A stretch of 64,000 nt of DNA from Ferruginibacter sp. (GTDB lineage Bacteria; Bacteroidota; Bacteroidia; Chitinophagales; Chitinophagaceae): the NCBI RefSeq assembly GCF_028288465.1, contig NZ_JAQBNR010000046.1:93219-157218 (forward strand), in the 5' to 3' direction. The notes beneath the pieces were generated by a model. That model did no database searches. It saw nothing but the letters and a program-made list of their open reading frames with translations, and was not told where the DNA came from. Positions 27,401 to 49,980 of the stretch are shown here, one piece after another. The translations under genes were made by a program, and so were the position numbers. Positions within the stretch are counted from its first letter, which is position 1, and every line of letters begins with the position of its first letter.

Positions 27401-28009
27401 CGGCAGGATGCCATAACATACCAGGCCAATGATATGCAGACAAGCTATATTGAAAACAAAGGTAACGGCCAGTTTACCATTACACCATTGCCCATTGAGA
27501 CACAGACTGCGCCCATTTATGGCATGATGGCAACTGATGCAGATGACGATGGCAACCTCGATGTGTTGCTAACCGGTAACGATTATGGAATGGAGCCCTA
27601 CAGCGGCCGTCATGATGCATTCAATGGTCTTTGTTTAAAGGGAGACGGCAAAGGCAGTTTCGCCGTAACTACTTTGCAGCAAAGTGGCTTTTTTGTAAAG
27701 GGAGACGCCAAAGGCCTGGCAATAATTCACACGGCCAAAAATGAAGATGTTATTTTATCTACTCAAAACCAGGATAGCCTGAAAGTATTTGCGCAGACTG
27801 CATCTGAGCACAGCAGTAGCAACCGCTGGATTGGTCTGCAACCGGGAGATGCCTATGCTGACATAGTATACAAAAATGGCACAAAAAGAAGAATGGAGTT
27901 TTACTATGGCAGCACTTATCTTTCCCAATCTACGAGAAAAATTAAATGGGATGGCGGCATCGCAAAAATGGTAATTACCAATTTCCGCGGTGTAAAAAGA
28001 ACCCTGTAA
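24440..28009 (+). CDS. FG-GAP/VCBS repeat protein with ASPIC/UnbV domain (CRTAC1-like)
   Basis: Many DFNxDG / DxDxDGDLD repeats; ASPIC-like GYLSTDDARAHFGLG; start uncertain (TTG 24440 or ATG 24467). Confidence 0.9.
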   Translation: MRYSKVLHHMTVQILRQLFLFTLFISIHHLVKAQTNPALFSLRAASQTGIEFKNTITESDTTNILNQANIYNGGGVGIADFNKDGLMDIYFAGNMVPNKMYLNKGNLKFEDVTNAAGVDGEGRWCTGVSIVDINADGLPDVYVCASFRNDALRRTNLFYINQGNDKNGIPVFKEQAAAYGVADTGLSTQAYFFDYDKDGDLDLYLVTNQLNDPETPIIFRPKVTDGSALNNDRLYRNNGNGTFTNVTKAAGILFEGWGHAACISDFNNDGWPDVYVANDFVSNDLLYINNKDGTFTNRLGEYFKHTGWNAMGTDFADINNDGLPDLISLEMLPESNMRKKRMLGGNEYYNYTNADKFGYTHQYVRNVLQINSGLTPEGHPVFSDVGFMAGMYQTDWSWCPLVADFDNDGLRDLIITNGLPRDVTDLDYISYDNGQVGAGNFSLALADSLPVVKIPNYSFKNMGNALFENTSKAWGFTQSSFANGSVYADLDNDGDLDIVVNNINEVASVYENTTNDKNLHQLTVSINGSGLNTQGIGATIRIYYGNHQQQYYEHHPTRGYLSTDDARAHFGLGSNKKIDSLKIEWPDASWQLLTNLKADEAITLNQKDAGKRKPFSPVAKPALFTEASKKYGIAYKPVEDDFVDYNIQLTLPHKLSQYGPGIAVGDIDNNGFDDFYVGGSSSNLGTFFMQDAKGNFTQDGDRFLQKENPLVEDMGVLFFDADGDKDLDMYVVSGSYELPPGNEICQDRLYLNNGKGKFARAVNALPTETANGSCVRAADIDGDGDLDLFVGGRVVSGAYPTAPQSFILQNDGGKFTDVTAQYCPALKNIGMVTDALWSDFDKDGKIDLVLVGEWMPVTFFKNTGKSFSQVSKTSGISNHVGWWNSLVAGDFDNDGDIDYIAGNLGLNSNYKATPKEPMTIWAKDLDQNGSLDAMIFCYMQAADSSMQPYPMHTKDDLAAQLISIRKKYPTYKSFGAAGMDELWPAKDRQDAITYQANDMQTSYIENKGNGQFTITPLPIETQTAPIYGMMATDADDDGNLDVLLTGNDYGMEPYSGRHDAFNGLCLKGDGKGSFAVTTLQQSGFFVKGDAKGLAIIHTAKNEDVILSTQNQDSLKVFAQTASEHSSSNRWIGLQPGDAYADIVYKNGTKRRMEFYYGSTYLSQSTRKIKWDGGIAKMVITNFRGVKRTL

Positions 28010-28027: not shown

Positions 28028-29197
28028 TTACATATTGCCGGCCATGTTTCTTAAAATGCCCAGTTCAACGCCCCTGATTTCCGCCAGGCCCCTCAATCGT
28101 CCGATGGCAGAATATCCGGGGTTTGTTTTTTTATGTAAGTCATCCAGCATCTGGTGACCGTGATCCGGCCGCACGGGTATGGCAATATTTCTTTCTTTCA
28201 TTACCTGCACAATTTCTTTAATTACTGCGTACATGTCCACGTCGCCTTCCAGGTGATTGTCTTCATAAAAATCCCCCTCCGCATTTCTTTTGGTACTGCG
28301 CAGGTGAATAAAATTGATCCGCTCGCCAAATTGTTTTACCATGGCGGGTAGATCATTATCTGCCCTTACACCAAATGAACCGGTACAAAAGCAAAGCCCG
28401 TTGTTGAGCGCAGGCACCGCATTTACCAACGCTTCAATATCTGCGGCGGTACTTACCACTCTGGGCAAACCAAGGATGGCATACGGCGGATCATCCGGAT
28501 GGATCACCAGCTTCACACCGCATTCTTCTGCGACCGGCACCACCTGTTGTAAAAAATAAATCAAATTGTTTCGTAATGCTGCCGCATCAATGTTGTCATA
28601 CTTATCCAGCGCCTGCTGAAATTGCGCCAGCGTAAAACTTGCTTCGCTACCCGGTAAGCCTGCTATTATATTTCTTTGCAGCAACGATTTTTCTTCATCA
28701 CCCATCGCTGCAAATCTTTCTTTAGCTTTCGCTATTTCAGCTGCGGTATAATCCCTTTTTGCATCTTTTCTGTTTAAAATAAAAACATCAAATGCTACGA
28801 AGGCAGCCTTTTCAAAACGCAGGGCTTTACTGCCATCTGCGACAGTATAGGCAAGATCAGTTCTTGTCCAGTCGAGCACCGGCATAAAATTGTAGGTTAC
28901 AATTTTAATGTTGCATTCTGCCAGGTTACGGATGGATTGCTTATAATTTTCGATGTATTGTTCAAAGCCTTCGGATTGTGTTTTAATGGCTTCATGAACG
29001 GGCACACTTTCTACAACAGACCAGGTTAAACCGGCAGTCTCAATCTCATTTTTACGCAGCTTAATTTCCTCTACGGTCCATATTGACCCATTGGGAATAT
29101 GATGCAGCGCTGTAACAATTCCGGTGCAGCCGGCCTGTCTGATATCGGCTAAACTAACAGGATCTTTCGGGCCATACCATCGCATGGTTTGCTCCAT
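28028..29197 (-). CDS. uxuA: Mannonate dehydratase
   Basis: [64 protein letters not shown]; start ATG 29197 preferred, alternative 29290. Confidence 0.95.
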
Positions 29198-29228
29198 GCG
29201 GGTGCCGGTGTTTTTGTAAGAGGAGAAA

Positions 29229-29257
29229 CCTCCCCCAACCCCTTCAAGGGAGGGGCT
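29229..29257. repeat. Bacteroidota CCCCT..AGGGG-type REP-like element just 5' of uxuA
   Basis: CCTCCCCCAACCCCTTCAAGGGAGGGGCT, read as [10 protein letters not shown] in the extended uxuA frame. Confidence 0.6.
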
Positions 29258-29501
29258 TCTGAAGAGTCTGTTATTTGTAAAGCTGCTCATGATTTGATTA
29301 TTTTACACACTGAGATGGTTAATGCCTTTTTTTAATTGATGCAATTTCTGTTTTTATTCTGTTAAAATGAAAACGGGATATTATTGCTTGCGTAGCTTTA
29401 TGATGGTTGTGATTGTTATTATCTTACACCCATCTGATTGTTATAATTTCAATATATAAATATTCGCCTATTTTATTTTTTGCGTAAATTACAAGCAACA
29501 A

Positions 29502-30383
29502 ATGAGACCACAATTATATAAATTACCATTGGCCCCCGACACCTCTTTTCTTTATATAGACGAAGAGTGTAAATACTTTGATAAACCCTGGCACTTTCAC
29601 AAAGAATATGAACTGGTGTACATCGATAAAACTAAAGGCACCCGTTTTATTGGCGACCAGGTAAGTTTTTTTGACGATGGCGATTTGGTGTTGCTGGGCC
29701 CCAACATCCCGCATTTATACCGGAACAGCGAAGACTATTATAAAAACAATAAGCTAACCGCCAAATCAATTTTCATACATTTTCCAGAAGATTTTTTAGG
29801 CCGCTCTTTTTTTGATCTACCTGAAATGAAACAGGTAAAAAAGTTACTGGAAAGATCTTCGCTTGGTATGGAGGTAACCGGAAATACCAATGCGCTGATA
29901 AAGGACAAGCTGACGGCCATGAAAAAAATGAAACCGGTCAACCGGTTGATGAAATTGCTGGAAATACTCATCAGTTTATCCAACAGTAAAGAGCTGACGC
30001 CGATCCTATCAAAATCATTTACAGCATCCAGTACAAAGGATACCGACCGTATTGACCAGGTCATCCAGTTTATTTTGAAAAATTATAAAAATGATATCTA
30101 CATCGAAGAAATTGCAGGGCAGCTGAACATGAGCATTGCTTCCTTTTCAAGATATTTTAAACACCATACCCACAAAACATTCTCCAACTACGTTACAGAA
30201 ATACGCATCAGCCATGCCTGCAGGCTGATGATGGATAGTCATTATAATATTTCTGAGATCTGCTACCTGAGCGGGTTTGAGAATCAATCCAATTTTTATC
30301 GCCACTTCAAAAAATTCACCGGCGTAATTCCAAAAGAATACAAGGCCAGGTTTTTAACCAATACGGCTGATATGGAAGAATAA
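29502..30383 (+). CDS. AraC family transcriptional regulator (cupin + HTH)
   Basis: PWHFHKEYELVYI, GDLVLLGPNIPH, C-terminal GFENQSNFYRHFKKFTGVIPKEY. Confidence 0.95.
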   Translation: MRPQLYKLPLAPDTSFLYIDEECKYFDKPWHFHKEYELVYIDKTKGTRFIGDQVSFFDDGDLVLLGPNIPHLYRNSEDYYKNNKLTAKSIFIHFPEDFLGRSFFDLPEMKQVKKLLERSSLGMEVTGNTNALIKDKLTAMKKMKPVNRLMKLLEILISLSNSKELTPILSKSFTASSTKDTDRIDQVIQFILKNYKNDIYIEEIAGQLNMSIASFSRYFKHHTHKTFSNYVTEIRISHACRLMMDSHYNISEICYLSGFENQSNFYRHFKKFTGVIPKEYKARFLTNTADMEE

Positions 30384-30488
30384 TTTTTTTTGTAACACTT
30401 ATTTTTAAAAGGAAAGAAATATTGACTGCGAATAAAAGAATAAAATTTTATTAGTAGCAGTTTGAGAAATAAGCCTTGCATTTTAAAA

Positions 30489-38113: not shown

Positions 38114-40219
38114 TTATTGCGCCACCGCGTAAATTTTTATACCAGCTAAATCAACGTTCACAACGGTGCGCCCTTTGCCAGTTGCACGAATGCCTGCGAC
38201 TCTTTTTGCTTCACCCAATTCCGGGCTCATTAAAGACAATTGCGAAAAACGAATGCTGCTGTTGATTTCATAAGACAGTTCATTGTCTGTGATCAGTGAA
38301 TCAATGTCTTTGATCAATGGCACATCTGAAAGGTCCTTCACTTCATCCGGCACTGGCAGCAGGCCTCCGTTCATAAAATGAATGGCCGCTTTGCCGTTGT
38401 AAAACCTGATTCTTGCAGCCCAACGTTGATCGCCTTTCAGCTGCCTGATAACAGGTTTAAATTTGCCTGCTTCAATTAATTTTTGCAATGGTGCCGATGC
38501 CACCGCAGAGCCAATGATATATAAATTTTTATATTTTGCTTTTAATAAAACTACCGACAGCGGCGTTGCACGGGCAAAGCCTTTTTCGTTGTGCGTACCA
38601 AATGGCAGGGCAACCCAGGCAATACCACCTTTGGAAAGATAGGATTGAATGGCTGTAAATTGTTTGTCTGATACGCAGGCAACGCCATCCATTATCAAGG
38701 GTGTATTTTCTTTGCTCAATGCAGCGGCGTCTGCCAGTTCGGCCGTACGTAAAAAACGATAGCCTACATTGTGTTTCACCAGTTGAGCACTCCATGCTTT
38801 CGATCTGTCCCAGTGTTCATGACCAGCTTCATCCCGCCAACCGTTTTCCCGGCAATAACTATTGTTCACCAACCGTACTTCCACCAGGTCTTTGCCATCG
38901 CGGTAATTTAAATCGCTGTATTGTTTTTCCCAGTTGTTTGATTTGCTGATGGCTTCTTCGGCCTCCAGTGAATGCGCAGGATCCTCTTCCAGCCTGCTGT
39001 TTAGCGTACTGCTCCAGTTGCCTACGCCCCAGAATCTTGCTAAGGCCCAGCCAAAATAAGCGCCCTTTTCAAAGATGGCATAGCTCAATGCCATGGCCGG
39101 TGCGTTGTTTCTTTTTTGGGCAATGTCTTTCTGGTGCAAGGCTTCCGCATCCATTTCTATCCAGTCTGCATTTTTGATATTGGTGCCCACATTTTCCAGC
39201 ATAAACAAATCCAGGTAGGGCGCCATTTTTTCAAGGTCAAGTGCCACAGCATTCAATACAATCGGCCCGGTGTTGGAACAGCAGGTCATCAGGGGTTTAT
39301 CGCCCAACACGCCCTTGATCATCTTTACATGGTCATACACAGCATCGGCTTTCATACGCAGCCAATCGCGGTACGCAGGGTTATCATAATTGCCCCACTC
39401 CAGCATGCCTTTTGTTGTATCACCAAAAAAGTTTTTATCAGAAAAATCCGGAATGTCATGACCATATTCCTTTTTAAACCGATCCCTGCAATAGTTACAA
39501 CCACAGGTAGTATTGCCCGGGTAACTGCACATATCATCTACTTCCACACCATCAAAAGGTACTTCCTTCATCAGCCGCTGGAGGTATTTTTTATGCATGT
39601 CCAAAAAGTTGGGATTGTTATGGCAGAAGGCTTCAAACTGGTATTGTTTGGCATAACCACGACTGCCATCCCTTAAATCCACTTCACACAAATCATTGTA
39701 GAAATATCCTTCATACTGCGCATATTTCCTGGCAATGGGATCAGGAAAAAGCAATACTGCGTGCCGCTCAAACTTATGTACATAACGGAAGTCGGCCTCA
39801 TTTCTTGGCCTGGTAATATCGTTGCAGCTATAGTGATCCATAAAGCGCACACCGTTCTTGTGCAGCTCTTCACACACGTTGGCATAATAACCATGCAGCT
39901 GGCTGAAATAATTGGCAAAATCAAAACGGTTGTGAAAACCAAAATTGATAGCGGTATCAATACCGGCTTTTGCAAAACCCTCAGCCCGTCTTTTTATTTT
40001 ATCCACCACTTGTTTTTGCGGCCATTGAATGTCTTCAAGAGTGCACCACCAACTGGCACTACGGTTGGGAATAAAGGCTGTTGCGGTGTTGTTTGATAGC
40101 TGCCTGCCAAAGGAAGCCAGCTGGCCGGCATACGTGGGTAAACTATGCAGGAGGCTAAAGCCTGCGCCTGTTACAGCTGCCGTTTGTATAAATTTTCTGC
40201 GATTGGTTTTTCCGCTCAT
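38114..40219 (-). CDS. Tat-exported uncharacterised glycoside-hydrolase-like protein, paralogue 1
   Basis: Tat NRRKFIQ; FCHNNPNF, DGVEVDDM, CGCNYC; C-terminal GATase-like trimerisation domain (PLIMDGVACVSD..YLSKGG). Confidence 0.75.
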   Translation of the reverse strand: MSGKTNRRKFIQTAAVTGAGFSLLHSLPTYAGQLASFGRQLSNNTATAFIPNRSASWWCTLEDIQWPQKQVVDKIKRRAEGFAKAGIDTAINFGFHNRFDFANYFSQLHGYYANVCEELHKNGVRFMDHYSCNDITRPRNEADFRYVHKFERHAVLLFPDPIARKYAQYEGYFYNDLCEVDLRDGSRGYAKQYQFEAFCHNNPNFLDMHKKYLQRLMKEVPFDGVEVDDMCSYPGNTTCGCNYCRDRFKKEYGHDIPDFSDKNFFGDTTKGMLEWGNYDNPAYRDWLRMKADAVYDHVKMIKGVLGDKPLMTCCSNTGPIVLNAVALDLEKMAPYLDLFMLENVGTNIKNADWIEMDAEALHQKDIAQKRNNAPAMALSYAIFEKGAYFGWALARFWGVGNWSSTLNSRLEEDPAHSLEAEEAISKSNNWEKQYSDLNYRDGKDLVEVRLVNNSYCRENGWRDEAGHEHWDRSKAWSAQLVKHNVGYRFLRTAELADAAALSKENTPLIMDGVACVSDKQFTAIQSYLSKGGIAWVALPFGTHNEKGFARATPLSVVLLKAKYKNLYIIGSAVASAPLQKLIEAGKFKPVIRQLKGDQRWAARIRFYNGKAAIHFMNGGLLPVPDEVKDLSDVPLIKDIDSLITDNELSYEINSSIRFSQLSLMSPELGEAKRVAGIRATGKGRTVVNVDLAGIKIYAVAQ

Positions 40220-40247
40220 CTCAACAGGTTTTGGTAAAGTGCTGATT

Positions 40248-40312
40248 CAAATCTACTCACTTACTAAAACTTTATTTTCCATTAATCGCTTTAAAATGTA
40301 TACTTTTTTAAC
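40248..40312 (-). promoter_or_regulatory. Regulon promoter 2: -7 TAGATTTG plus GTTAAAAAAGTA box
   Basis: CAAATCTA at 40248-40255 and TACTTTTTTAAC at 40301-40312 (53-bp offset); TAnnTTTG is the Bacteroidota -7 consensus. Confidence 0.8.
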
Positions 40313-40350
40313 AAGGGGAAATGAATAGTATGAAATTATTTTTTGACCGG

Positions 40351-40403
40351 CAGTTGTATTTCAATTGGGCATCGTTGTGTCACTCACTTTTACTTTTTCA
40401 GCT
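40351..40403 (-). repeat. Short dispersed repeat GAGTGACACAACGATGC..., copy 3
   Basis: Reverse complement of 40351-40385 matches 22041-22075 at 31 of 35 positions. Confidence 0.8.
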
Positions 40404-40894
40404 TCATGGATCAACGGTCGCAGGAGATTACAGAAAGGCATTGTATTATTGTGCTTTAACTTCGTTTATGAAAGGGGAGTATTTGACCGATTCCAAAAAG
40501 GCATTAATCTTTTCGCCAGAAATAATTAACTCACAACATCTTTCGCAAAATTTTGGATGAATTGTATAAATCGATTACTTTGAATGGTTAATTTAAATAG
40601 GCGCAACTTGCTGTCGCATAGACCAAACGTTAAAGAAACAAAATTTGGAAATTATCATTAGGTTGAAACGTTATACATGGCAGACTATAGTTGCGAACAA
40701 GCATTGATAAAAGTTGAGCAAATGAAAGCTTTCAGAAAATAATCTGAAATGCAAAAACGGGCAGCAGGCAACTTCTTACCATCAACGCATCTTCCCGAGC
40801 CCGTGAATTGGCCAGAGACGTGGGGTGTCACTGAGTTATAATACTGCTCAAGTGTAGGCTTCCCCGTTTTACAATAGTTTAAAAGTATTTATCA

Positions 40895-41703
40895 ATGAAA
40901 CTACTCTTACCACTACTGGTTATTTTACTGTATAGTTGTACAGGTGAAATCAAGTATCCTGATGGAGGATGTGATTACCCCAAAAACGTATCAGGTAGTG
41001 ATACTAATATTTATCATCATCCATTAAAAGATAGTTTCCCCAGGGGCAAAAAATTTCTTGTATACGCCGAGTCCTTTTTTTTCAGTGTGTTTGATGAGCC
41101 TAACCTTAGTATAAAACCGCTGGATAAAGAAACATTCAGGCTCTCCTGGTCATCCGTATTCGGGCACACTGTTATTATAAATATTAATGAAGACGCTGTT
41201 ACTATAAAAAAGCAAACGTAGAAGATGCTTATGTTAGGGATACAACAAGTCTCTCAAAAACAGATAGTTTACTTACCTATATACTAAGAAAATATTATCC
41301 GATCGATTCTGCTAATCCACTATATATTGATAAAAAAAAGTTTCTTGATTCCCTTATCAAACTATATCCACAATTAGTTGATCATTCATACTATGCCAAA
41401 TTTTTTGAGAAGGCACCTATACGGAATAAGAATTTTCATTACCAACTAACTAAAATTTTTATCACACGAAAGCAGTTTGCAGAATTGACTGAAAAAATTA
41501 ACGCTGCTGGTTTTTGGGCGATGCCAATTCAAGATGGATGCGGTAACGACGGTACGGACGGAGCCGGCTTTACACTTGAGGCCAATACAAAGAAAAAATA
41601 TCAAATAGTTTTTTCGGGTGAATGTACGCCAACATCTTTTCAAAAAATATGTTCGCAAATTCTTGCCCTTGCAAAACTGAATAATCACTCACTTTATGAG
41701 TAA
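40895..41703 (+). pseudogene. Hypothetical lipoprotein gene split by a -1 frameshift at an A run (pseudogene, sequencing error or programmed frameshift)
   Basis: ORF1 (lipobox LYSC) stops at 41219-41221; the -1 frame is open from the A run at 41206-41211 to 41703; one extra A gives a 269-aa protein. Confidence 0.75.
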
Positions 41704-41901
41704 ACTAAAGGAAGCTCCTCTGTGTAACGTTTTTCAAATTTATACCCAAAGCCGTTTTGCAGCTTTCGGGTAACGGCTGATCTTCTTTCCCGGTAATACC
41801 ACCTCCATAACCATGTACGTTGGCAAGGCTCATGGCATGTTACAGAGCTATAAGTCAGTTAAAGTGAGGTAAAAAGTTCGATCGCACAATGAAAAAAATT
41901 C

Positions 41902-44004
41902 CTATTGTGCCACCGCATATATCTTCACACCATCTAAATTTACTTTCAGCACAGCAATCCCGGTGCGCTTTTTATTTACTTCCCCCAGCCGCGAAACTTC
42001 ATTTAATTCAGGACTCATCAGCGATAACGTAACTAAATTCATTTTACTGGCATTGATCTCATATTCCAATACATTATCGGTTATGTTGGTATCCAATTCT
42101 TTCAAAACAGGTATGCCGCTGATATCTTTAATGGTTGGATGAGGTTTTGGTTTCAATGCCGTATTCATAAAATGTAATACCGGTTTACCATTGTACAGCC
42201 TGGCTCGGACAGCCCATCGCTTATCCCCTTTTATTTGTTTGATCAATGGCTGAAATTTTCCGGATGCAATTAATTTTTGTAATGGCTCAGCTGTAACAGC
42301 CGATTCTATCGTTACTAAATTTTTATGCCTGCCTTTCATCAGTTGAGTCGATAAAGGCATTGCTCGTAAAAAACCTTTTTCATCATGCGTACCAAAAGGT
42401 AATGCCAGCCAGGCAATGCCACCTTTGGAAAGATAGGTTTTGATGGCAGCGAATTGTTTATCGGAAACACAGCCCACCGAATCTAAAATCAGGGGCGTAT
42501 TTTCTTTACCCAATAGACTTGCATCGCCCAGTTCTTCATACCGCACAAAGCGATAGCCCACATTGTTTTTTACCAGTTGTTCGCTCCATGCTGCAGCACT
42601 ATCCCAATGCTCTTTGCCATTGGTGTTGCGCCAGCCATTCTCTTTACAATAACGATTATATACCAATCTTACTTCTGCAACATCAACACCCTCCCGGTAA
42701 TTTAAGTTGCTGTATTGTTTTTCCCAGTTGTTGGATTTACTGATCACGTCTTCCATCTCCATCGCATCCGGCGGATCTTCTACCAGTCTGCCGTTGAGCG
42801 TACTGCTCCAGTTGGCAACGCCCCAAAAGCGACTTAGCGCCCAGCCAAAATAAGCGCCGGGTTCATAGATGGTATAACTCAGGGCCATCGCTGGCGCCTT
42901 GCCTCTTTTTTCAGCAATGTCTTTCTGGTGCAAAGCTTCCGCATCCATTGCTATCCAGTTCGCATTGTCAACATTGATGCCCACATTTTCCAGCATAAAA
43001 AAATCCAGGTGTGGCGCCAGTTTTTCCAGGTCGAGTGACAATATATTCAGTATGATAGGTCCTGTATTGGAGCAACAGGTCATCAATGGTTTTTCGCCAA
43101 TGGTTTGCTTGATCAGTTTTAAATGATCCGCCACCGAATCAATTTTCATCCGCAACCAATCCCTGAAAACAGGATTGTCATAATTGCCCCATTCCAATGT
43201 TTCTTTGGTGGTGTCACCCCAGAATGATTTTTCTCCAAATGGCGGAATGTCATGTCCATAATCTCTTTTAAACCGCTCCCGGCAATATTTACAACCGCAG
43301 GTGGTGGGCCCCGGGTAGTTGCACATATCATCTACTTCAATGCCATCAATAGGCACTTCCTTTAACAGGCGTTGCAGGTATTTCTGGTGCATATCCAGGA
43401 AGCCGGGATTGTTATGGCAAAAGGTTTCAAACTGGTATTGTGGCGCATAACCACGGCTGCCATCCCTGAGATCTACTTCACAGATTTCATTAAAAAAATG
43501 TCCTTCGTATTGTGCATACTTGGCAGCAAACGGGTCGTGGTATAATAAAACGGTATGCCGCTGAAACTGGTGCATTTTTTTCAACTCCGCTTCATTGCGT
43601 GGCCGCTCAATTTCATTGCACGAATAATGATCCATCAGCTTAATGCCATGTTGATGTAACTCTTCTGCAACATTGGCGAAGTAACCATGCACCTGGCCGA
43701 AGTAATTGGAAAAATCAAAGCGCAGACCAAAGCCAAAAATGATGGCGGTATCAATGCCTGCTTTGGCAAACCCCTCTGCCCGGCGTTTTATTTTGTCGGT
43801 AATATGTTTTTGCGGCCATTGCAGATCATCCATGGTTGTCCACCAGCTGGCAGCACGGGCGGGTATAAAAGCAGGCTCAGCATACCGATGGGCTGACGGA
43901 AGATTGTTTGCATACAACAACGGTAGCCCGTTAGAAAGGCCAATGCCTGCGGCAGACAAAGTCGCCATCTTTATAAATGTTCTTCGATTTTGTGGATGTT
44001 GCAT
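41902..44004 (-). CDS. Tat-exported uncharacterised glycoside-hydrolase-like protein, paralogue 2
   Basis: Tat NRRTFIK; FCHNNPGF, DGIEVDDM, CGCKYC; collinear with paralogues 1 and 3. Confidence 0.75.
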   Translation of the reverse strand: MQHPQNRRTFIKMATLSAAGIGLSNGLPLLYANNLPSAHRYAEPAFIPARAASWWTTMDDLQWPQKHITDKIKRRAEGFAKAGIDTAIIFGFGLRFDFSNYFGQVHGYFANVAEELHQHGIKLMDHYSCNEIERPRNEAELKKMHQFQRHTVLLYHDPFAAKYAQYEGHFFNEICEVDLRDGSRGYAPQYQFETFCHNNPGFLDMHQKYLQRLLKEVPIDGIEVDDMCNYPGPTTCGCKYCRERFKRDYGHDIPPFGEKSFWGDTTKETLEWGNYDNPVFRDWLRMKIDSVADHLKLIKQTIGEKPLMTCCSNTGPIILNILSLDLEKLAPHLDFFMLENVGINVDNANWIAMDAEALHQKDIAEKRGKAPAMALSYTIYEPGAYFGWALSRFWGVANWSSTLNGRLVEDPPDAMEMEDVISKSNNWEKQYSNLNYREGVDVAEVRLVYNRYCKENGWRNTNGKEHWDSAAAWSEQLVKNNVGYRFVRYEELGDASLLGKENTPLILDSVGCVSDKQFAAIKTYLSKGGIAWLALPFGTHDEKGFLRAMPLSTQLMKGRHKNLVTIESAVTAEPLQKLIASGKFQPLIKQIKGDKRWAVRARLYNGKPVLHFMNTALKPKPHPTIKDISGIPVLKELDTNITDNVLEYEINASKMNLVTLSLMSPELNEVSRLGEVNKKRTGIAVLKVNLDGVKIYAVAQ

Positions 44005-44030
44005 TGATTGAACGGTTAAATAAACCTTTT

Positions 44031-44095
44031 CAAATCTAATTATTTGCGGGAAGGATGTTTTCCTATAATCGGTTTAAAACCTGTACTTTTTTAAC
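44031..44095 (-). promoter_or_regulatory. Regulon promoter 3: -7 TAGATTTG plus GTTAAAAAAGTA box
   Basis: CAAATCTA at 44031-44038, TCCTATAATC at 44061, TACTTTTTTAAC at 44084-44095. Confidence 0.8.
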
Positions 44096-44256
44096 GACGG
44101 AATTATTTTTCAGAGCTTCCATTTTCTTGGATCGATGAAAAAAGATAGAAGTATTGAAACAAGAAGAACTAGCGGAGAAAAATTTCCGCTTTAACTTGCG
44201 GACCGTTGTGATATGCTTTGGCAGAAGACGGAATATAAATTTTGTAACCATAAGGC

Positions 44257-44430
44257 TCAAACAGAATCAACTTTCTTTGTTTTTGCCGATGCTGCTTTTC
44301 TTACCGTCTTTTTCTTTTGTTGCGCTTTTCGCAATTTTATGAATGCACTAAATTCCTTTCTTTCTTTTTCTGTCCAAGGTTTGTCCAGAACATAAAAGTC
44401 AACATTTTTTGGCTCCCTGATTAGTCCCAT
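44257..44430 (-). CDS. 57-aa basic protein MGLIREPKNVDFYVLDKPWTEKERKEFSAFIKLRKAQQKKKTVRKAASAKTKKVDSV (absent from the ORF track); candidate antitoxin/partner
   Basis: Manual translation from ATG 44430 to TGA 44257; starts 5 nt after the stop of the GNAT-like gene. Confidence 0.75.
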   Translation of the reverse strand: MGLIREPKNVDFYVLDKPWTEKERKEFSAFIKLRKAQQKKKTVRKAASAKTKKVDSV

Positions 44431-44435
44431 TGTTA

Positions 44436-44960
44436 TTACCTTTTAAAATATTGATTAATTAATCTGGTTGCTGCTGCGGTTTCAATCATCATTTTGGTTC
44501 CCCTGAAATGCGTTGCAAACAACGTTTCCTGATAATGCCTAATTAAAACCGTCTTCGCATCAAAAGCAACATAGCCCTCATATCCTTTTTCAAAAGAAAG
44601 CTGACAAGCGAAAGCTACTAAATTGCCGGGAACACCAGCATACACTTTTTGTTTTCCCTTATTAAATTTTGCACTTTCAATTAAATGCATGTAAATATGA
44701 TCATGCTGATCACTCAAACTTATCAATCCCTGTACAATTTGAGGATTATCTTTTATAACTAGTTTATACGTTGCTCTATCTGTTAGTTTGACTTGCGCAT
44801 CCCACTTAAATTGCCAATCCTTTTTATTAATCTGTTTACTGTCTTTAGCAAAGAGTTGAAAGACTTCAGTATCAAAAATATCACCGGAAACTATATTTTC
44901 TATCGAATTCGTCAATTTATCAATTTCAATATTGACAAGTATTTCTGGTGTTTTTTTCAC
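44436..44960 (-). CDS. Hypothetical GNAT-fold-like protein, candidate toxin
   Basis: HIYMHLIESAKFN..VYAGVPGNLVAFAC..SFEKGYEGYVAFDAK..LIRHY; GTG start at 44960 preferred over ATG 44999. Confidence 0.6.
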   Translation of the reverse strand: MKKTPEILVNIEIDKLTNSIENIVSGDIFDTEVFQLFAKDSKQINKKDWQFKWDAQVKLTDRATYKLVIKDNPQIVQGLISLSDQHDHIYMHLIESAKFNKGKQKVYAGVPGNLVAFACQLSFEKGYEGYVAFDAKTVLIRHYQETLFATHFRGTKMMIETAAATRLINQYFKR

Positions 44961-45055
44961 TTCATAAAAATACGAAAATCTAGCCAGAAAAATGGCCATT
45001 AATTGATTAAGTCAAGCATTATAAGCAGCATTTTTTGAAGAGTTATATCTTATCC

Positions 45056-47164
45056 TTATTGCACCACCGCATACACTTTCACCCCATCCAAATTAATCCG
45101 CGAGGTCGTAAGGCCATTGCTTTTTCCTACAATTGAAACAGGTCGTTGTACGCCATTCAATTCAGGGCTCATCACCGATAAGCCGCTTAAAGAAAATGCT
45201 GCAGTATTAATTTCATATTCCTGTTCATTGTCTTTAATCGCAGAATCCAGGCCGACCAAAATCGGGATATCAGAAAGATCTTTTAATGTTGGATGCGGTA
45301 TCGCCGTAAGGGCTGCATTCATACAATGCAAAACAAGTTTGCCATTGTACATGCGCATTCTTACCGCCCATCTTTTATCGCTCTTAATTTGCTTAATAAC
45401 AGGTTTAAATTTTCCTGTCGCGATTAGATGTTGCAAAGGTGTTGATGTAACAGCAGACGAAATCATCACCAGGTTTTTATACCGGTGCTTCTTCAATTCC
45501 TCTGATAACGCAACCGGTCTTGCAAACCCTTTTTCATCATGCGTACCAAAAGGCAACGCTAACCAGGCAATGCCGCCGTTTAAGAGATACGTTTTGATGG
45601 CAGCAAATTGTTTGTCAGAAACACAAGCCACGGTATCTAAAATCAGCGGAGTTTTTTCTTTGCTTAATGCATCGGCATTTTCCAATGCTGCTGAACGAAC
45701 AAACCCATAGCCTACATTATTTTTTACCAACTGCTCACTCCAGGCCGCCACACTATCCCAATGCTCATGACCATCCTTGTTGCGCCAGCCATTTACTTTG
45801 CAATCACGACTGTACACCAGTCTTACTTCTGCAAAATCTTTTCCAATATTATAATCGAGATCGCTGAATTGTTTTTCCCAATGATTGGTTTTGCCGATCA
45901 CAGCCTCCTGCTCCATCGCATCCGGCGGATCTTCCGGCAGTCTTGCATTGAGCGTACTGCACCAGTTGGACACACCCCAGAAACGACTGAGCGCCCAGCC
46001 AAAATAAGCACCCGTTTCATAGATGGTATAACTCAATGCCATAGCCGGACGATTGTCTTTTTCAGCCGCTATATCTTTCTGTAACAAAGCCTCTGCATCC
46101 ATCTTTATCCAGTCAACATTCTGCACATTAGTGCCTACATTTTCCAGCACAAAAAAATCAAGCTGTGGCGCTAATTTTTCCAGGTCAAGTGATAAGGCAT
46201 TCAGTACCAACGGACCGGTATTAGAACAACAGGTCATCAATGATTTTTCGCCCATCGTCGTCTTAATCATTTTCAAATGATCCGTAATTGCATCCACTTT
46301 CATGCGCAACCAATCCCTGAAAACCGGGTTGGCATAATTACCCCATTCCAATGTTTCTTTTGTGGTGTCGCCCCAAAAATCTTTTTCGCCAAAGGACGGA
46401 ATCTCGTGACCGTATTCCTTCCTGAACCGCTCCCGGCACCAGGTACAGCCGCACACCGTTGGACCTGCATAGTTGCACATATCATCTACCATGATGCCGT
46501 CCAGTGGTACTTCCTTTAATAATCGCTGTAAATATTTTTGGTGCATGTCCAGGTAGTTGGGGTTGCTATGGCAAAAAGTATTTAACTGGTATTGTGGTGC
46601 ATAACCAAGGCTTCCATCTCTTAAATCAACCTGGCAAACATCGTTGAACAAGTGGCCTTCGTATCGTGCGTATTTTGCAGCTATTACATCATGGTACAGC
46701 AACACATGATGCCGCTGAAAAGTGTTCATCTTTCTTAACTCTGCTTCATCTTTTGGCCTGGAGATATGATTGCAGGAATAGTGCTCCATGAAATGAATGC
46801 CCTGCTGGTGCAGGGCTTCACACACATCTGCGTAGTAGCCATGCAGCTGGCCAAAATAATCCGCAAAATCAAAACGGATATGAAAGCCAAAATTCACGGC
46901 CGTATCAATATTCGCTTTGGCAAAACCTTCGGCCCGCCGCTTTATTTTATCGCTGATTTGTTTTTGCGGCCACTGCAGGTCTTCGATAGACGTCCACCAG
47001 CTTGCTACGCGGTTGGGAATAAAAGTGGTTGCAGGACAGTTGTTGAGGTTCGTTGTGTGACGATCATTTGCATACAAAAACGAAAAATTGTTTGCAGCTG
47101 CAACGCCTGCCCCTGACATAACTGCCAGCTGGATAAACTTCCTTCGGTTGCAGGGGTACCTCAT
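45056..47164 (-). CDS. Tat-exported uncharacterised glycoside-hydrolase-like protein, paralogue 3
   Basis: Tat NRRKFIQ; FCHSNPNY, DGIMVDDM, CGCTWC; collinear with paralogues 1 and 2. Confidence 0.75.
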   Translation of the reverse strand: MRYPCNRRKFIQLAVMSGAGVAAANNFSFLYANDRHTTNLNNCPATTFIPNRVASWWTSIEDLQWPQKQISDKIKRRAEGFAKANIDTAVNFGFHIRFDFADYFGQLHGYYADVCEALHQQGIHFMEHYSCNHISRPKDEAELRKMNTFQRHHVLLYHDVIAAKYARYEGHLFNDVCQVDLRDGSLGYAPQYQLNTFCHSNPNYLDMHQKYLQRLLKEVPLDGIMVDDMCNYAGPTVCGCTWCRERFRKEYGHEIPSFGEKDFWGDTTKETLEWGNYANPVFRDWLRMKVDAITDHLKMIKTTMGEKSLMTCCSNTGPLVLNALSLDLEKLAPQLDFFVLENVGTNVQNVDWIKMDAEALLQKDIAAEKDNRPAMALSYTIYETGAYFGWALSRFWGVSNWCSTLNARLPEDPPDAMEQEAVIGKTNHWEKQFSDLDYNIGKDFAEVRLVYSRDCKVNGWRNKDGHEHWDSVAAWSEQLVKNNVGYGFVRSAALENADALSKEKTPLILDTVACVSDKQFAAIKTYLLNGGIAWLALPFGTHDEKGFARPVALSEELKKHRYKNLVMISSAVTSTPLQHLIATGKFKPVIKQIKSDKRWAVRMRMYNGKLVLHCMNAALTAIPHPTLKDLSDIPILVGLDSAIKDNEQEYEINTAAFSLSGLSVMSPELNGVQRPVSIVGKSNGLTTSRINLDGVKVYAVVQ

Positions 47165-47191
47165 GTTTCGTTGGTTGTAAGATTAGATACT

Positions 47192-47256
47192 CAAATCTAC
47201 TCGTTTCATACAATCGCATATTCCTATAATCAACTTAAAGACTGTACTTTTTTAAC
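47192..47256 (-). promoter_or_regulatory. Regulon promoter 4: -7 TAGATTTG plus GTTAAAAAAGTA box
   Basis: CAAATCTA at 47192-47199, TCCTATAATC at 47222, TACTTTTTTAAC at 47245-47256. Confidence 0.8.
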
Positions 47257-47474
47257 CGTGCATTATAGGCCACACGTTTACCTGTAAAGCAATGGACTCC
47301 TCTCCACAATAACTTTTTTTATTGCCTGTTTAGCGAAACCCTGGCGAATTGACCGGTACCAATAAACGCCTTCAAAGTTTGCTGTAACCGAAAACTGTTA
47401 ACAAATGTTCATTTTTGGTAAGATAATTGTAAAAGAAAGCAGTGTATACCATTCACCTCCCCAAAATTATTAAA

Positions 47475-48836
47475 ATGAAAAGTAAAGTATGTTTGCTATT
47501 GCTCACTGTGGTTGCCTTTGCGGCGTGTAAAAAAAACTCGGATATTATGGCTCCGGTCGTGACTAAAATTGATACCCTTTCTAACAGCATTACAACCGAC
47601 ATGACACTGGATGCAAATACCAGTTATGTGATCAACGGACAGTTATATGTTACCAATAACGCTACGCTTACCATACCTGCCGGCGTTACGGTATCCTTTG
47701 TTAAGATGGATGAAAAAGAAAAAAAGGGCGTGCTGGTAATTACCCAGGGTGCTAAATTGATTGCCAACGGCACTGCTGATAAACCGATTGTTTTTACATC
47801 TGCAGCTGGGACAAAAGCCCCGGGCGATTGGGGAGCTGTTATTTTATTGGGTAAAGCGCCAACCAATACCGTTACAGGCAATGTGGAAGGACTGCCCCTA
47901 TCTGACAATACCCGTTACGGCGGTACAACAGCAGATGACAATTCAGGTTCACTTAAATATGTACGTCTTGAATATTGCGGGGGCATCAACCCCGATGAAG
48001 AAGGAGAATGGCAGGTGGATAAAGCCAGCGGACTTTGCATGGCGAGTGTTGGTAGTGGTACCACTGTAGATAATGTGATGACCGTGCATTCCAATGATGA
48101 TGCTTTTCAGTTTGTTGGCGGAACAGTTAACGCCACGCATTTAATTGGCTTTAACAATGGAGATGATGATTTTGATTTTGATCTTGGTTACCAGGGAAAA
48201 TTACAATTCCTGATCTCTTACCGCAGCGGGCTTTCCTCTTCCCATTCGCAAAGAGCAAATGGCTTTGAAAGTTATAATGATGAATTTCCCACCACCAATG
48301 CGCCCCTCACACGCCCGGTGGTAGCTAACATGACCATTATTGGCCCTGCGGGTACCGAGACTGCAAAAACATCATTAAACCAGGGTGTGTATATTCGCAA
48401 GGGCACACGCTTCGTGGTAGAAAATTCTATCATAGCTGAATATCCGCAGGGTGGACTGATGGTTTGCAACAGAACAAGACCTGTGCTGTTAACAGGTATA
48501 GAATCATTTTTTAAATATAACCTCGTGAACAGCGACAGCGCCAGCCGCACTTTTAGCTGGGATAAGGATTTTGCTGTAGTGGGCGATCCCGAACTCCAGC
48601 AGTTTGCTTTAAACAGTGTTAATAACAATGTTTTAATTACCAACTCGGCCGATCTTAAATTAAAAACTATGTATGGGGGAGTACCGGATTTAACTCCGGA
48701 CGCCGGGTCACCCGCGTTAACGGGAGCTAATTTTAACGATGCAGATTTTAGCAGCTTTTTTACCAAGGTAGCTTACCGCGGTGCTATTGGGGCTGATAAC
48801 TGGGCAGCTGCAAATAATTGGGCTGTGTGGAAATAA
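47475..48836 (+). CDS. Bacteroidota surface lipoprotein with probable right-handed beta-helix fold
   Basis: Lipobox FAAC-KK; LTIPAGV, LVITQGAKLIANGTADKPIVFTS, PGDWGAVILLG, DDNSGSLKYVRLEY, DDDFDFD; start ATG 47475. Confidence 0.7.
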   Translation: MKSKVCLLLLTVVAFAACKKNSDIMAPVVTKIDTLSNSITTDMTLDANTSYVINGQLYVTNNATLTIPAGVTVSFVKMDEKEKKGVLVITQGAKLIANGTADKPIVFTSAAGTKAPGDWGAVILLGKAPTNTVTGNVEGLPLSDNTRYGGTTADDNSGSLKYVRLEYCGGINPDEEGEWQVDKASGLCMASVGSGTTVDNVMTVHSNDDAFQFVGGTVNATHLIGFNNGDDDFDFDLGYQGKLQFLISYRSGLSSSHSQRANGFESYNDEFPTTNAPLTRPVVANMTIIGPAGTETAKTSLNQGVYIRKGTRFVVENSIIAEYPQGGLMVCNRTRPVLLTGIESFFKYNLVNSDSASRTFSWDKDFAVVGDPELQQFALNSVNNNVLITNSADLKLKTMYGGVPDLTPDAGSPALTGANFNDADFSSFFTKVAYRGAIGADNWAAANNWAVWK

Positions 48837-48865
48837 CTGTAAAATAATTTAATAATTATTTACGG

Positions 48866-48933
48866 GCGGGGATGTAAAAGATGTTGGGTAGCTGCAGGTT
48901 TAAACGCAATACTGAACATTTTTAGCACCCCGC
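48866..48933. terminator. Imperfect long hairpin between convergent genes
   Basis: GCGGGGATGTAAAAGATGTT ... AACATTTTTAGCACCCCGC followed by TTTT. Confidence 0.5.
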
Positions 48934-48972
48934 TTTTAGTTTTTCATATGCTTAGATTTAGGGAACAGGATG

Positions 48973-49980
48973 TCATTTCACCTTATCTCTTTTTAATTTT
49001 AATTCCCGCCAGGTAGTTAGAATGATACCTTCGTCCTGCAATGCTTTTTTAAATACCGGGTCCATCATTGCAAGCATGTCTCCACGCCTTACCGCACCAC
49101 TGCCTGAGATATGCGGAAACATGTCTGTGGTTGCCGTGGAGTGCATGATCATCATGGTTACGCCGGGTTGTAACGATTTAATAGCTTCGATATATTTGGC
49201 AGTTTTAAATGCCTGTAATTTTTTGTCGTCGCCTGAAATAGCTTCGGGGATTTTCCAATCATAACTCACATTGTGGAGATCATCCAATACTGGCAGGCCT
49301 GCAGCCCAGGTCATCTTACCCAATGCCCGCAATTGCTCTATTTGTTCAGCTGGTGCATTCATTTCTGCCTGTATTAAAACATCAGCACCACCAGGCAACA
49401 TTACCGGGATATGATTTTCGATTCCCAGCCCAATATATCGTTTTAAAAATTCAGGCGAAGCAAACAAGGTACCCATATGCGAATCCAGGTGGGTTGGTTC
49501 AAAACCCATTATCCTGGCCCTTTCCAGCTGGGCCCTTATTTCCTTATCCACTTCATCGGCTGAAGCATGCGCTACCACGTCTGCTACGTTGCTCCACATG
49601 GCACCTTCTGTATCTACCAGGCCCGGCACATTTGTTTTGCCGGCCAATGGTCCCCAGCGGTAGTCGCCCCATTCCGAGGTAAGGGTTAAATGAAGGCCGG
49701 CATCCATACCGGGATGGGCTTTCATGTAATGAACAAAACCGGGCACCCACGGGCAGGGCATCATTACGCTTACAGATGTGGCCACACCTTTTGTGATAGA
49801 GTTAATAGCGCCTTCATTGGAGTCGTAGCTCATTCCGGCATCATCCACATGCAGAATCAGAACTCTTGCACCTTTTGGATAGCCGAGTTTTTCGGCATAC
49901 GTGCTATCAATTTTTTGAGCGGCTGCAAACTGCCACATGCTGGCAGCAAAAAACAGGGCGATAGTGTTATTAAAAGTCAT
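48973..49980 (-). CDS. YdjC/ChbG family carbohydrate deacetylase, secreted
   Basis: ILHVDDAG, GLHLTLTSEW, PTHLDSHMG. Confidence 0.88.
   Translation of the reverse strand: MTFNNTIALFFAASMWQFAAAQKIDSTYAEKLGYPKGARVLILHVDDAGMSYDSNEGAINSITKGVATSVSVMMPCPWVPGFVHYMKAHPGMDAGLHLTLTSEWGDYRWGPLAGKTNVPGLVDTEGAMWSNVADVVAHASADEVDKEIRAQLERARIMGFEPTHLDSHMGTLFASPEFLKRYIGLGIENHIPVMLPGGADVLIQAEMNAPAEQIEQLRALGKMTWAAGLPVLDDLHNVSYDWKIPEAISGDDKKLQAFKTAKYIEAIKSLQPGVTMMIMHSTATTDMFPHISGSGAVRRGDMLAMMDPVFKKALQDEGIILTTWRELKLKRDKVK

Follow-up and report, generated by a model that had tools for sequence, protein, structure and literature searches.

A conserved creatininase-RidA-enolase operon and Tat-exported proteins of GH42-like fold share a promoter box in Ferruginibacter and may serve the use of acidic N-acetyl amino sugars

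The closest described pathway to the system treated here is the Ong route for 2-acetamido-2-deoxy-gluconate. In this oxidative chitin pathway of Pseudoalteromonas prydzensis (Jiang et al. 2022, PMC9537276), the GH20 enzyme OngA releases N-acetylglucosamine (GlcNAc) and GlcNAc1A, OngB deacetylates and OngC deaminates, and the RidA protein OngD is essential on the way to 2-keto-3-deoxygluconate (PMC9537276). We analysed a 64-kb stretch of a Ferruginibacter genome (hereafter the window; positions 93219-157218 of contig C61 in a 6.9-Mb assembly), whose proteins are 90-100% identical to their counterparts in F. paludis CECT 8366. On its minus strand lie, in order of transcription, T700c, a 187-aa open reading frame (ORF), T700b, T700a, and genes for a creatininase-family protein, RidA, a 3-hydroxyacyl-CoA-dehydrogenase-family protein (3HCDH), an enolase-superfamily protein, an EamA transporter, a DHDPS-family protein, an SDR and a FAH-family protein (Table 1). 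T700a, T700b and T700c are paralogues of some 700 aa with twin-arginine translocation (Tat) signals, and a gene for an AraC-family regulator adjoins the cluster.

Like the Ong system, this one would combine uptake through a TonB-dependent receptor, a periplasmic GH20, import of an acid, deacetylation and a RidA deamination that would give a 2-keto-3-deoxy acid, together with a separate Nag route for GlcNAc. RidA and GH20 are the parts homologous between the two, and they are likewise found in the same system here: a GH20 gene stands behind a copy of the shared promoter box on contig C11 of this genome, and GH20 genes are also present in the corresponding loci of Runella and Dyadobacter. Deacetylation is assigned to a creatininase-family enzyme, whereas the Ong system uses the D-aminoacylase OngB, and deamination probably proceeds by way of an enolase-superfamily dehydratase instead of the pyridoxal-phosphate enzyme OngC; neither OngB-type D-aminoacylases nor OngC-type deaminases are represented in the operon. 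The transporter is EamA rather than a member of the SSS family, the regulator is of the AraC or GntR type, and aldolase or diketo-hydrolase steps stand in place of KdgK. The two also differ in that this genome encodes no AA10 lytic polysaccharide monooxygenase (LPMO), and in that the substrate is here a proposal.

Another precedent is the non-phosphorylative catabolism of L-fucose and L-rhamnose, with which the operon shares the trio of enolase-superfamily protein, SDR and FAH, the lack of a kinase and the expected products pyruvate and a small acid. An earlier note on this stretch had placed this diketo-hydrolase logic at the core of the pathway. That does not hold across related loci, where FAH occurs in a third (19 of the 57 described below) and RraA-like or HpcH-type aldolases appear in other contexts. 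In addition, no equivalog cut-off is reached, the enolase is MLE/NSAR-like with altered catalytic residues, and the amidase and RidA have no counterpart there. No description came up in full-text searches of the literature on the gene set, on hexosaminates, on periplasmic aminotransferases of polysaccharide utilisation loci (PULs) or on a new GH42-like family. The same note's statement that no pathway with this gene set had been described therefore agrees with the literature searched, the Ong route, which it had not considered, being the nearest. The pathway logic has precedent and most of the enzymes differ, and the T700 family is an unnamed branch of the GH42-like fold with altered catalytic residues.

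The cluster consists of two separable modules and is not one indivisible unit. Module 1 is creatininase-RidA-3HCDH-enolase-EamA-DHDPS-SDR and module 2 the three T700 paralogues with Tat signals. In a set of 57 metagenome loci (8 kb or longer) retrieved with the enolase, module 1 keeps its gene order in 46-53, as it does in PULs of Runella and Dyadobacter. Within the 57, 3HCDH is present in 53, creatininase and EamA in 51 each, DHDPS in 49, SDR in 46, RidA in 38 (plus 8 with a fused form) and an AraC orthologue in 34. FAH, found in 19, is an optional part of the operon, and T700 lies within 10 kb in five. Conversely, in 76 T700 loci taken from species-representative genomes, the genes from creatininase to FAH lie within 10 kb of T700 in eight, all of Chitinophagaceae type. 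An orthologue of the enolase was found in all nine Chitinophagaceae-type T700 genomes tested and in Pedobacter heparinus and is absent from 28 other T700 genomes; the operon is missing in 28 of the 38 genomes with the T700 family. Dyadobacter and Runella often have enolase orthologues of about 80% identity, and the genomes of these genera that have the operon contain no T700. The earlier note had described a single eleven-gene regulon. Of that view the shared box and AraC protein stand and the single unit does not; as a gene neighbourhood, module 1 is conserved, but the full set stays together in few loci of either collection.

The operon is common in rhizosphere and soil metagenome contigs and in the cultivable genera Ferruginibacter, Dyadobacter, Runella and Pedobacter, and its surroundings vary. 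Loci of Runella and Dyadobacter read SusC-SusD-(GH20)-creatininase-RidA-3HCDH-enolase-EamA-DHDPS-SDR-(GH20)-cl44-GH109, with DegT and Gfo genes nearby. The commonest metagenome array is DegT-propeller-amidase-NagP-NagA-NagB-oxidoreductase-creatininase-RidA-3HCDH-enolase-EamA-DHDPS-SDR-(FAH)-(FAD/Fe-S oxidase), with a divergent AraC gene and, in some cases, a T700 gene after the latter. A third locus type contains genes for GH27, GH123, a PhoX-like protein, an esterase and a class III aminotransferase and adds an RraA-like aldolase, a gene added in seven operon loci. Two distant loci keep just creatininase, (RidA) and enolase together, beside a Gfo enzyme, another aminotransferase and an HpcH aldolase. 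Natural creatininase-RidA fusions of 388-397 aa, with the creatininase-family part N-terminal and the RidA part C-terminal, occur in eight loci (L125, L130, L131, L133, L135, L138, L145 and L159), and a 944-aa FAD/Fe-S/CCG oxidase follows FAH or SDR in 15 of the 57. Kinase and SSS genes are missing both from the operon in the window and from the gene clusters annotated in the 57 loci. The cl44 protein is a conserved cytoplasmic protein of about 360 aa that always lies between GH20 and GH109 or beside the operon; it matches no Pfam or NCBIfam model, and its motifs LSIDDN, LSFHA, GYFNVDDD and HEQYFYP recall those of polysaccharide deacetylases.

Outside the operon loci, the neighbours of T700 are a Tat-signal DegT-family aminotransferase (21 loci), Gfo/Idh/MocA oxidoreductases and a glucuronyl-esterase-like hydrolase, and further SusC/SusD (flanking T700 in 9-11 of the 76 loci), a secreted 450-aa protein, a ceramidase-like amidase, MFS, SIS and GDSL proteins, GH109 and a 3-keto-disaccharide hydrolase. 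A 754-aa protein that often precedes T700 (cl39) was considered as a distant T700 paralogue and rejected (hhalign probability 0.2%).

In Chitinophagaceae, both modules have a conserved box in common, GTTAAAAAAGTA. The window contains exactly four copies of the box CGTTAAAAAAGTAYA, all on the minus strand, where 0.58 would be expected by chance, and these sit upstream of the three T700 paralogues and of the creatininase gene. Four promoters with identical box and spacing had been reported before: the four copies are there, and identical spacing is limited to the T700 trio, the creatininase copy being spaced differently (Table 1) and having its second half-site separated from the box. The three T700 copies lie inside a 72-nt duplicated promoter module and are therefore not independent. 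We take the TAGATTTG element downstream of them to have the form of the Bacteroidota -7 promoter motif. Elsewhere, the box lies 80-95 nt before T700 in 13 Chitinophagaceae loci and precedes an EamA sub-operon in two (L012 and L023), and in L008 it stands both before a cl44-creatininase operon and before a divergent GH109-Gfo-DegT-propeller operon. About 37 of the 57 metagenome loci carry it at most 260 nt upstream of the creatininase gene (40 box hits), and it is present in 31 of the 34 loci with AraC versus 9 of the 23 without (Fisher p = 5e-5). Neither the GntR-regulated Runella locus nor the Dyadobacter locus has the box, which is therefore lineage-specific. Judged by this conservation, the box is a real phylogenetic footprint, for which AraC is the candidate binder. 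An AraC gene adjoining targets with a shared conserved operator-like site is the arrangement of an AraC/XylS-type regulon, and the AraC protein probably activates both modules via GTTAAAAAAGTA in Chitinophagaceae.

The regulon extends beyond the window. Three more boxes lie on contig C11, before genes for a 3-keto-disaccharide hydrolase and a Tat-Gfo protein, before a SusC/SusD pair, and before a GH20 gene followed by cl44. The absence of linked SusC/SusD genes, as first reported, is correct for the window, where no such pair is adjacent, but not for the genome, given the box-preceded pair on C11; in Runella and Dyadobacter the pair stands directly before the operon. On C61 itself, 9.6-26 kb past the window end, we found an amino-sugar companion module that encodes an unknown 754-aa protein, an esterase, an Oxidoreduct_C protein, NagB-like and NagA-like proteins, a NagP-like MFS transporter, a ceramidase-like amidase, a propeller protein, a Tat-DegT protein, a Gfo enzyme and GH109. 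Contig C61 ends inside this GH109 gene, and C11 may therefore continue it. The Tat-DegT protein is closest to the PseC, WecE-type and LegC 4-aminotransferases. A conserved 443-aa secreted partner protein (unk458) had been considered as a lactonase, which was not borne out: the folded model is a generic seven-bladed propeller with no informative match.

The three T700 paralogues share 64-67% identity (64% between T700c and T700a) and all carry twin-arginine motifs of the form NRR(K/T)FI(Q/K). Neither Pfam nor NCBIfam has a model that matches them, that of the Glyco_hydro_42 catalytic domain included, and no PDB chain was matched either by sequence or by a 29-member profile at E <= 10. An exhaustive profile search for the family gave 568 representatives, and its several hundred homologues are all labelled hypothetical or 'Tat signal domain-containing'. 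In the tree, T700a belongs to an orthologue group that is single-copy in most Chitinophagaceae, and T700b and T700c represent older paralogue clades common to F. paludis and several metagenome-assembled genomes (MAGs), T700c grouping with its orthologues from F. paludis, L020 and L092 in a separate clade. One distant member of the family in the representative library, the 1153-aa P0239, is fused to a glucuronyl-esterase-like (GCE-like) alpha/beta hydrolase, of the same esterase family that adjoins T700 in 13 loci.

An AlphaFold (AF2) model of T700a (pLDDT 78, pTM 0.81) has the three-domain fold of GH42 type, with a TIM barrel, an alpha/beta 'trimerisation' domain and a beta-sandwich, as in GH42, GH164 and the GH35 enzyme GlmA. 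The top Foldseek matches are 3tts, 5e9a and 4oif (GH42), 6t5o (GH164) and 8oug/6jow (GlmA), with E = 4e-17 to 1e-15; matches to GH42, GH164, GH35-GlmA and GH151 lie at E of about 1e-17 and TM of about 0.55-0.6. Consistent with this fold, distant relatives of T700 have Glyco_hydro_42M (PF08532), GLMA_2nd (PF22369) and GHL6 domains. Scored over 45 sequences from four divergence tiers, the invariants of the superfamily are R98, H129, S131, C199, D228, D229, C239, C241, C244, F248 and E342. By AF2 secondary structure, read without superposition, predicted strand 4 (224-228) ends in the invariant D228-D229 and not in the clan GH-A Glu, predicted strand 7 (375-379) ends in S379-Y380, and the sole invariant Glu, E342, follows strand 6. 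The family thus has Asp-Asp in place of the Asn-Glu of GH42, GH164 and GlmA on strand 4, and its invariant Glu on strand 6 and not on strand 7; it also differs from these enzymes in its Tat signal and periplasmic location and in lacking any sequence match to a Pfam glycoside hydrolase model or PDB chain. The three paralogues had been called GH-like at the outset: according to the model this is correct at the level of the fold, while the GH42 sequence model and the catalytic Glu pair are both missing, and the T700 proteins are best termed putative hydrolases. C199 together with the CxCxxC motif (C239, C241 and C244) resembles, in make-up and position, the zinc site of GH42, and this Cys4 cluster is probably a zinc site. 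The TIM-barrel enzymes of GH84, GH20 and GH123 have their catalytic pair, Asp-Asp or Asp-Glu, where strand 4 ends, and we take the Asp-Asp pair of T700 as a lead towards substrate-assisted hexosaminidases of the GH84 type. T700 differs from these families in having no detectable homology to them, the likeness consisting of motif and position, in a genomic context rich in N-acetylhexosamine (HexNAc) enzymes.

For the operon enzymes, the creatininase-family protein scores 217.5 bits against Pfam PF02633 (cut-off 31.3) and has the motifs EQHGLHLP and NGHGGN, and it remains below all NCBIfam equivalog cut-offs (TIGR04448, 114.8 versus 235; MftE, 153.4 versus 172). RidA reaches 100 bits with TIGR00004, just below the 106.25-bit cut-off. 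The closest solved structure to 3HCDH is 4om8, a 5-formyl-3-hydroxy-2-methylpyridine-4-carboxylate (FHMPC) 5-dehydrogenase (E = 7e-46), and that to the DHDPS-family protein is 7c0c, an L-2-keto-3-deoxyarabonate dehydratase (E = 9e-27), in addition to a weak KdgD match. The SDR has no specific equivalog, and its PDB neighbours are unnamed SDRs or FabG. FAH scores 208.8 bits with NF053535 (cut-off 500), and its best PDB match is HpaG, ahead of diketo-deoxyrhamnonate hydrolase. The enolase is closest to 2p88 (E = 1e-23), which we take to be an N-succinyl-amino-acid racemase (NSAR), and keeps FKFK (the KxK motif), DPNQ (Asp) and EDP (Glu) in the alignment with it; the full residue set of the MLE subgroup (KxK; Asp, Glu, Asp; strand-6 Lys) is not present. 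Its L-rhamnonate dehydratase score is 26 bits versus 393, and its best is the muconate cycloisomerase subfamily at 100.6 versus 335. Signal peptides are absent from all eight operon proteins. The enolase, creatininase-family protein and RidA of F. paludis CECT 8366 share 93-98% identity with those of the window.

We propose, with moderate confidence, that the operon is a cytoplasmic, kinase-free route for a 2-acetamido-2-deoxy-aldonate or a closely related acidic N-acetyl amino sugar, that the T700 proteins are HexNAc glycosidases, and that both belong to one AraC-box regulon. The proposal sets a substrate, an order of steps and catalytic roles upon the observed gene families, operon conservation, box, predicted fold and co-occurrence. 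An N-acyl amino sugar (acid), the substrate class put forward in the earlier note, is the most coherent one because the operon's neighbours elsewhere are GH20, GH109, GH123, GH27, NagA, NagB, NagP, amidases and sugar aminotransferases. From GH20, GH109, GH123 and GH27 and the parallel NagP/NagA/NagB we infer a HexNAc glycan that gives GlcNAc and a second, acidic or unusual amino sugar. The T700 proteins would be periplasmic glycosidases for N-acetylhexosamine-type linkages, possibly with substrate-assisted catalysis; that periplasmic Tat oxidoreductases make the acid is speculation. EamA would import it. Enzymes of the enolase superfamily require a carboxylate with an alpha proton, and the NSAR-like enolase would take the proton next to the carboxylate and eliminate the 3-hydroxyl, giving an N-acetyl enamine (2-acetamido-2-enoate), from which the creatininase-family amidase would remove the acetyl group to leave a free enamine. 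RidA would hydrolyse this enamine or imine to a 2-keto-3-deoxy acid and ammonia. The DHDPS-family enzyme, as an aldolase or dehydratase acting on this acid, would then yield pyruvate and a small aldehyde or acid together with the SDR, 3HCDH and, where present, FAH, RraA-like or HpcH-type enzymes, FAH being an optional end step as a diketo-acid hydrolase or decarboxylase; cleavage would occur without phosphorylation.

Several observations bear on the order of these steps. The creatininase-RidA fusions suggest that the product of the amidase is the substrate of RidA, an enamine or imine, and, together with the resemblance of the enolase to N-acyl-amino-acid racemases, they suggest dehydration before deacylation, contrary to the deacylation-first order assumed at first. 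With KxK, Asp, Glu and a His third ligand and without the strand-6 Lys, the enolase is likelier a one-base dehydratase than a racemase. The varying partners (DHDPS, RraA-like, HpcH and FAH) are pyruvate aldolases or kindred enzymes with 4-hydroxy-2-oxo acids as substrates, which suggests that the constant core makes a 2-keto-3-deoxy acid.

Other observations weigh against this proposal. The chief misfit is the recurring pairs of aminotransferases and Gfo/Idh/MocA proteins, which a simple hexosaminate route does not explain. The glycan hints conflict, the glycosidases suggesting GalNAc and NagA/NagB/NagP with GH20 suggesting GlcNAc or chitin. No operon enzyme reaches an NCBIfam equivalog cut-off, so that only family-level names are justified; the roles given to 3HCDH and the SDR are guesses, and the system contains neither a lactonase nor an assigned sugar-1-dehydrogenase. 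The third metal ligand of the enolase is a His (IRHIS versus MIDEG) and its strand-6 Lys is replaced by Tyr/Asn, and its chemistry may differ. T700 lacks the Glu pair of clan GH-A, with its acid/base on strand 4 and its nucleophile on strand 7, and the model is of low confidence in loops close to the putative active site (residues 149-196 and 316-326). No AA10 LPMO, which would produce aldonic-acid chain ends, was found in the genome, and this makes oxidised chitin of the organism's own making a less likely source.

The aminotransferases gain more weight if the substrate is a 6-deoxy di-amino or N-acetyl-6-deoxy amino sugar of bacterial surface glycans, such as bacillosamine, AAT-Gal, FucNAc, QuiNAc or the hexose part of pseudaminic or legionaminic acid. 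In the periplasm, DegT and Gfo enzymes would take off the 4-amino group, after which the cytoplasmic operon would lead through a 2-keto-3,6-dideoxy acid to pyruvate and lactaldehyde or lactate. The closeness of Tat-DegT to PseC, WecE-type and LegC enzymes, which act on 4-keto-6-deoxy sugars, the relation of FAH to 2,4-diketo-3-deoxy-L-rhamnonate hydrolase, the HpcH aldolase beside the core trio in a distant locus and the absence of a kinase, as expected for 6-deoxy sugars, are consistent with this, as is the FAD/Fe-S/CCG oxidase of 15 loci, whose architecture we presume to be that of Dld-II-type D-lactate dehydrogenases. Yet FAH resembles HpaG more than it does the rhamnonate enzyme and, like the oxidase, is optional, the DHDPS-family protein is nearest a pentonate dehydratase, and GH20, GH109 and NagA/NagB indicate ordinary HexNAc. 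Moreover, the usual substrates of DegT-family enzymes are nucleotide sugars, of which the periplasm contains none, and we consider a 6-deoxy amino sugar substrate unlikely. If the substrate were instead an N-acetyl amino-uronic acid of capsules or teichuronic acids (GalNAcA, ManNAcA or GlcNAcA), or its aldaric form, the enolase would act beside the C6 or C1 carboxylate, DHDPS would be a dehydratase of KdgD or L-2-keto-3-deoxyarabonate type yielding 2-oxoglutarate semialdehyde, and the FHMPC-dehydrogenase-like 3HCDH would oxidise the latter. The nearest structure and weak KdgD match of DHDPS and the likeness of 3HCDH to an aldehyde-oxidising member of its family, from the pyridoxine pathway, fit this scheme, and GCE-like esterase, PhoX-like and metallophosphoesterase neighbours suit wall polymers. 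However, the one linked gene that resembles a polysaccharide lyase is a Heparinase II/III-like ORF in L012, no uronate isomerase and no evidence of a uronate dehydrogenase was found, and the adjacency of uxuA is not conserved, which leaves this reading improbable as well.

A substrate that is no sugar at all, for instance an N-acyl-D-amino acid, a hydroxy-amino acid, an opine or a lactam, would reduce the glycan link to regulation or position. The enolase, nearest the presumed N-succinyl-amino-acid racemase 2p88 and dipeptide epimerases, speaks for it, as do the lactam and peptide hydrolases within the creatininase family and the amino-acid-like solutes that EamA proteins often transport (TIGR00950). 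This has little probability in our judgement, given that the operon lies inside PULs in Runella and Dyadobacter, with SusD or GH20 on one side and GH20/GH109 on the other, that it forms one co-directional array with NagP-NagA-NagB in many loci, and that its variable partners are 2-keto-3-deoxy-acid aldolases. We regard as very improbable that the creatininase-family protein is an IolN-like C-C hydrolase acting on an aminocyclitol or inosamine-type substrate (e.g. from aminoglycoside-like glycosides), for which Gfo/Idh-type dehydrogenases and aminotransferases would make the diketone. The recurring pairs of Gfo/Idh/MocA proteins and aminotransferases would suit it, but the match to 3-dehydro-scyllo-inosose hydrolase IolN (65.6 bits) is far under the 245-bit cut-off and weaker than those to MftE and creatininase, no other inositol-pathway genes were found, and the HexNAc glycosidase context contradicts it. 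The acidic N-acetyl amino sugar route remains the reading that we prefer.

At the locus itself, the eleven co-oriented genes lie where the earlier note had placed them, and Pfam confirmed the families it had assigned to the eight from creatininase to FAH. A twelfth co-oriented gene that it had not listed, the 187-aa ORF, lies between T700c and T700b. This ORF has a homologue in none of 76 related loci, F. paludis included, where the corresponding gap measures 106 nt, and it is probably outside the system. The genes overlap or nearly abut as described: the creatininase and RidA genes are 2 nt apart, RidA and 3HCDH overlap by 1 nt and 3HCDH and enolase by 4 nt, and one further operon junction is a 10-nt gap. 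The AraC gene and uxuA do adjoin the cluster. As a conserved associate, however, uxuA did not survive comparison: it adjoins the cluster only in F. paludis among the T700 loci compared, for which reason it was rejected as a member of the system, and no box lies upstream of the copy in the window.

Table 1. Features of the Ferruginibacter locus and of related loci; coordinates are positions in the window unless a contig or locus is named.
Feature	Coordinates	Strand	Remarks
T700c, Tat-signal 702-aa paralogue	45056-47164	-	no Pfam match; family of predicted GH42-like fold without a name
187-aa ORF between T700c and T700b	44436-44999	-	no Pfam or NCBIfam match
T700b, Tat-signal 700-aa paralogue	41902-44004	-	no Pfam match
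T700a, Tat-signal 701-aa protein	38114-40219	-	AF2 model, Foldseek, tree
Creatininase-family metal amidohydrolase, cytoplasmic	37137-37928	-	Pfam PF02633
RidA-family enamine/imine deaminase	36754-37134	-	Pfam PF01042
3-hydroxyacyl-CoA-dehydrogenase-family NAD enzyme (3HCDH)	35774-36754	-	Pfam 3HCDH_N and 3HCDH
Divergent enolase-superfamily enzyme, MLE/NSAR-like subgroup	34629-35777	-	Pfam MR_MLE_C
EamA (DMT) transporter	33532-34467	-	two EamA domains (Pfam)
DHDPS/NanA-family Schiff-base enzyme	32586-33521	-	Pfam PF00701
Classical SDR dehydrogenase	31795-32538	-	Pfam
FAH-family enzyme	30895-31755	-	Pfam PF01557
AraC-family regulator	29502-30383	+	Pfam HTH_18 and AraC_binding
UxuA mannonate dehydratase	28028-29290	-	Pfam, 445 bits
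Box GGTTAAAAAAGTACA before T700c	47243-47257	-	57 nt upstream of TAGATTTG -7 element
Box CGTTAAAAAAGTACA before T700b	44082-44096	-	same 57-nt spacing
Box TGTTAAAAAAGTATA before T700a	40299-40313	-	same 57-nt spacing
Box CGTTAAAAAAGTATA before creatininase operon	38093-38107	-	about 132 nt from -7-like GTGATTTG
Companion module (L083)	C61:166802-183646		
Box-preceded units (L080)	C11:16600-28300		
cl44	L085:16012-17085		
cl44	L087:13873-14976		
cl44	C11:27211-28281		
Lipoprotein, YdjC-family and beta-lactamase-family genes	47442-52037		
T700b-T700a gap	40220-41901		1.68 kb
ORF in T700b-T700a gap	40895-41221		108 aa, lipoprotein-like
Dispersed element in T700b-T700a gap	~40333-40404		about 70 nt
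Tandem repeat at enolase 3' end	34586-34641		14-nt unit, ACCATTCACTAYTC-like, about 4 copies
AraC-FAH intergenic region	30384-30894		dispersed repeat of about 300 nt
FG-GAP/ASPIC repeat protein	24440-28009		1189 aa
PhyH-family dioxygenase	23294-24109		

Divergent from T700c lies a gene for a 464-aa lipoprotein, which shares the box-containing intergenic region with T700c, and next to these are genes for a secreted YdjC-family protein and a 574-aa beta-lactamase-family protein. The trio also adjoins T700c in F. paludis and in the MAG L020, and these genes may be lineage-specific members of the regulon. No convincing gene was found between T700b and T700a, the 108-aa ORF being the lone notable one; F. 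paludis shares the first ~195 nt only of this gap, its own measuring ~570 nt, and the ~70-nt dispersed element within it is present on many contigs. The repeat between AraC and FAH occurs in dozens of copies with 73-98% identity on many contigs of the genome, and part of it is found at the same site in F. paludis. The tandem repeat overlapping the 3' end of the enolase gene lies within the 161-nt gap before EamA. Beyond uxuA, neither the FG-GAP/ASPIC repeat protein nor the dioxygenase is conserved with the cluster.

A large part of the organic nitrogen in soil is contained in amino sugars, and to our knowledge little is known of the use of the rarer ones (galactosamine, oxidised chitin ends and wall-polymer sugars) by bacteria other than Proteobacteria. 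More tentatively than the route itself, and with doubt, we suggest that soil Bacteroidota possess here a new route for acidic or rare N-acetyl amino sugars of microbial necromass (e.g. galactosamine-type or 6-deoxy-diamino), in which an enolase would dehydrate an N-acetyl-2-amino-2-deoxy sugar acid, a creatininase-fold enamide deacylase would be coupled to RidA, and a new Tat-exported glycoside hydrolase family with a zinc-Cys4 site and an Asp-Asp pair would act by substrate assistance on a GH42-like scaffold. If true, the enolase, creatininase and 3HCDH superfamilies, all three of them large, would gain new reactions, the natural creatininase-RidA fusion would be explained, and the several hundred T700 proteins, at present without annotation, would form a new family of glycosidases. 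The occurrence of the operon in cultivable genera makes the proposal directly testable.

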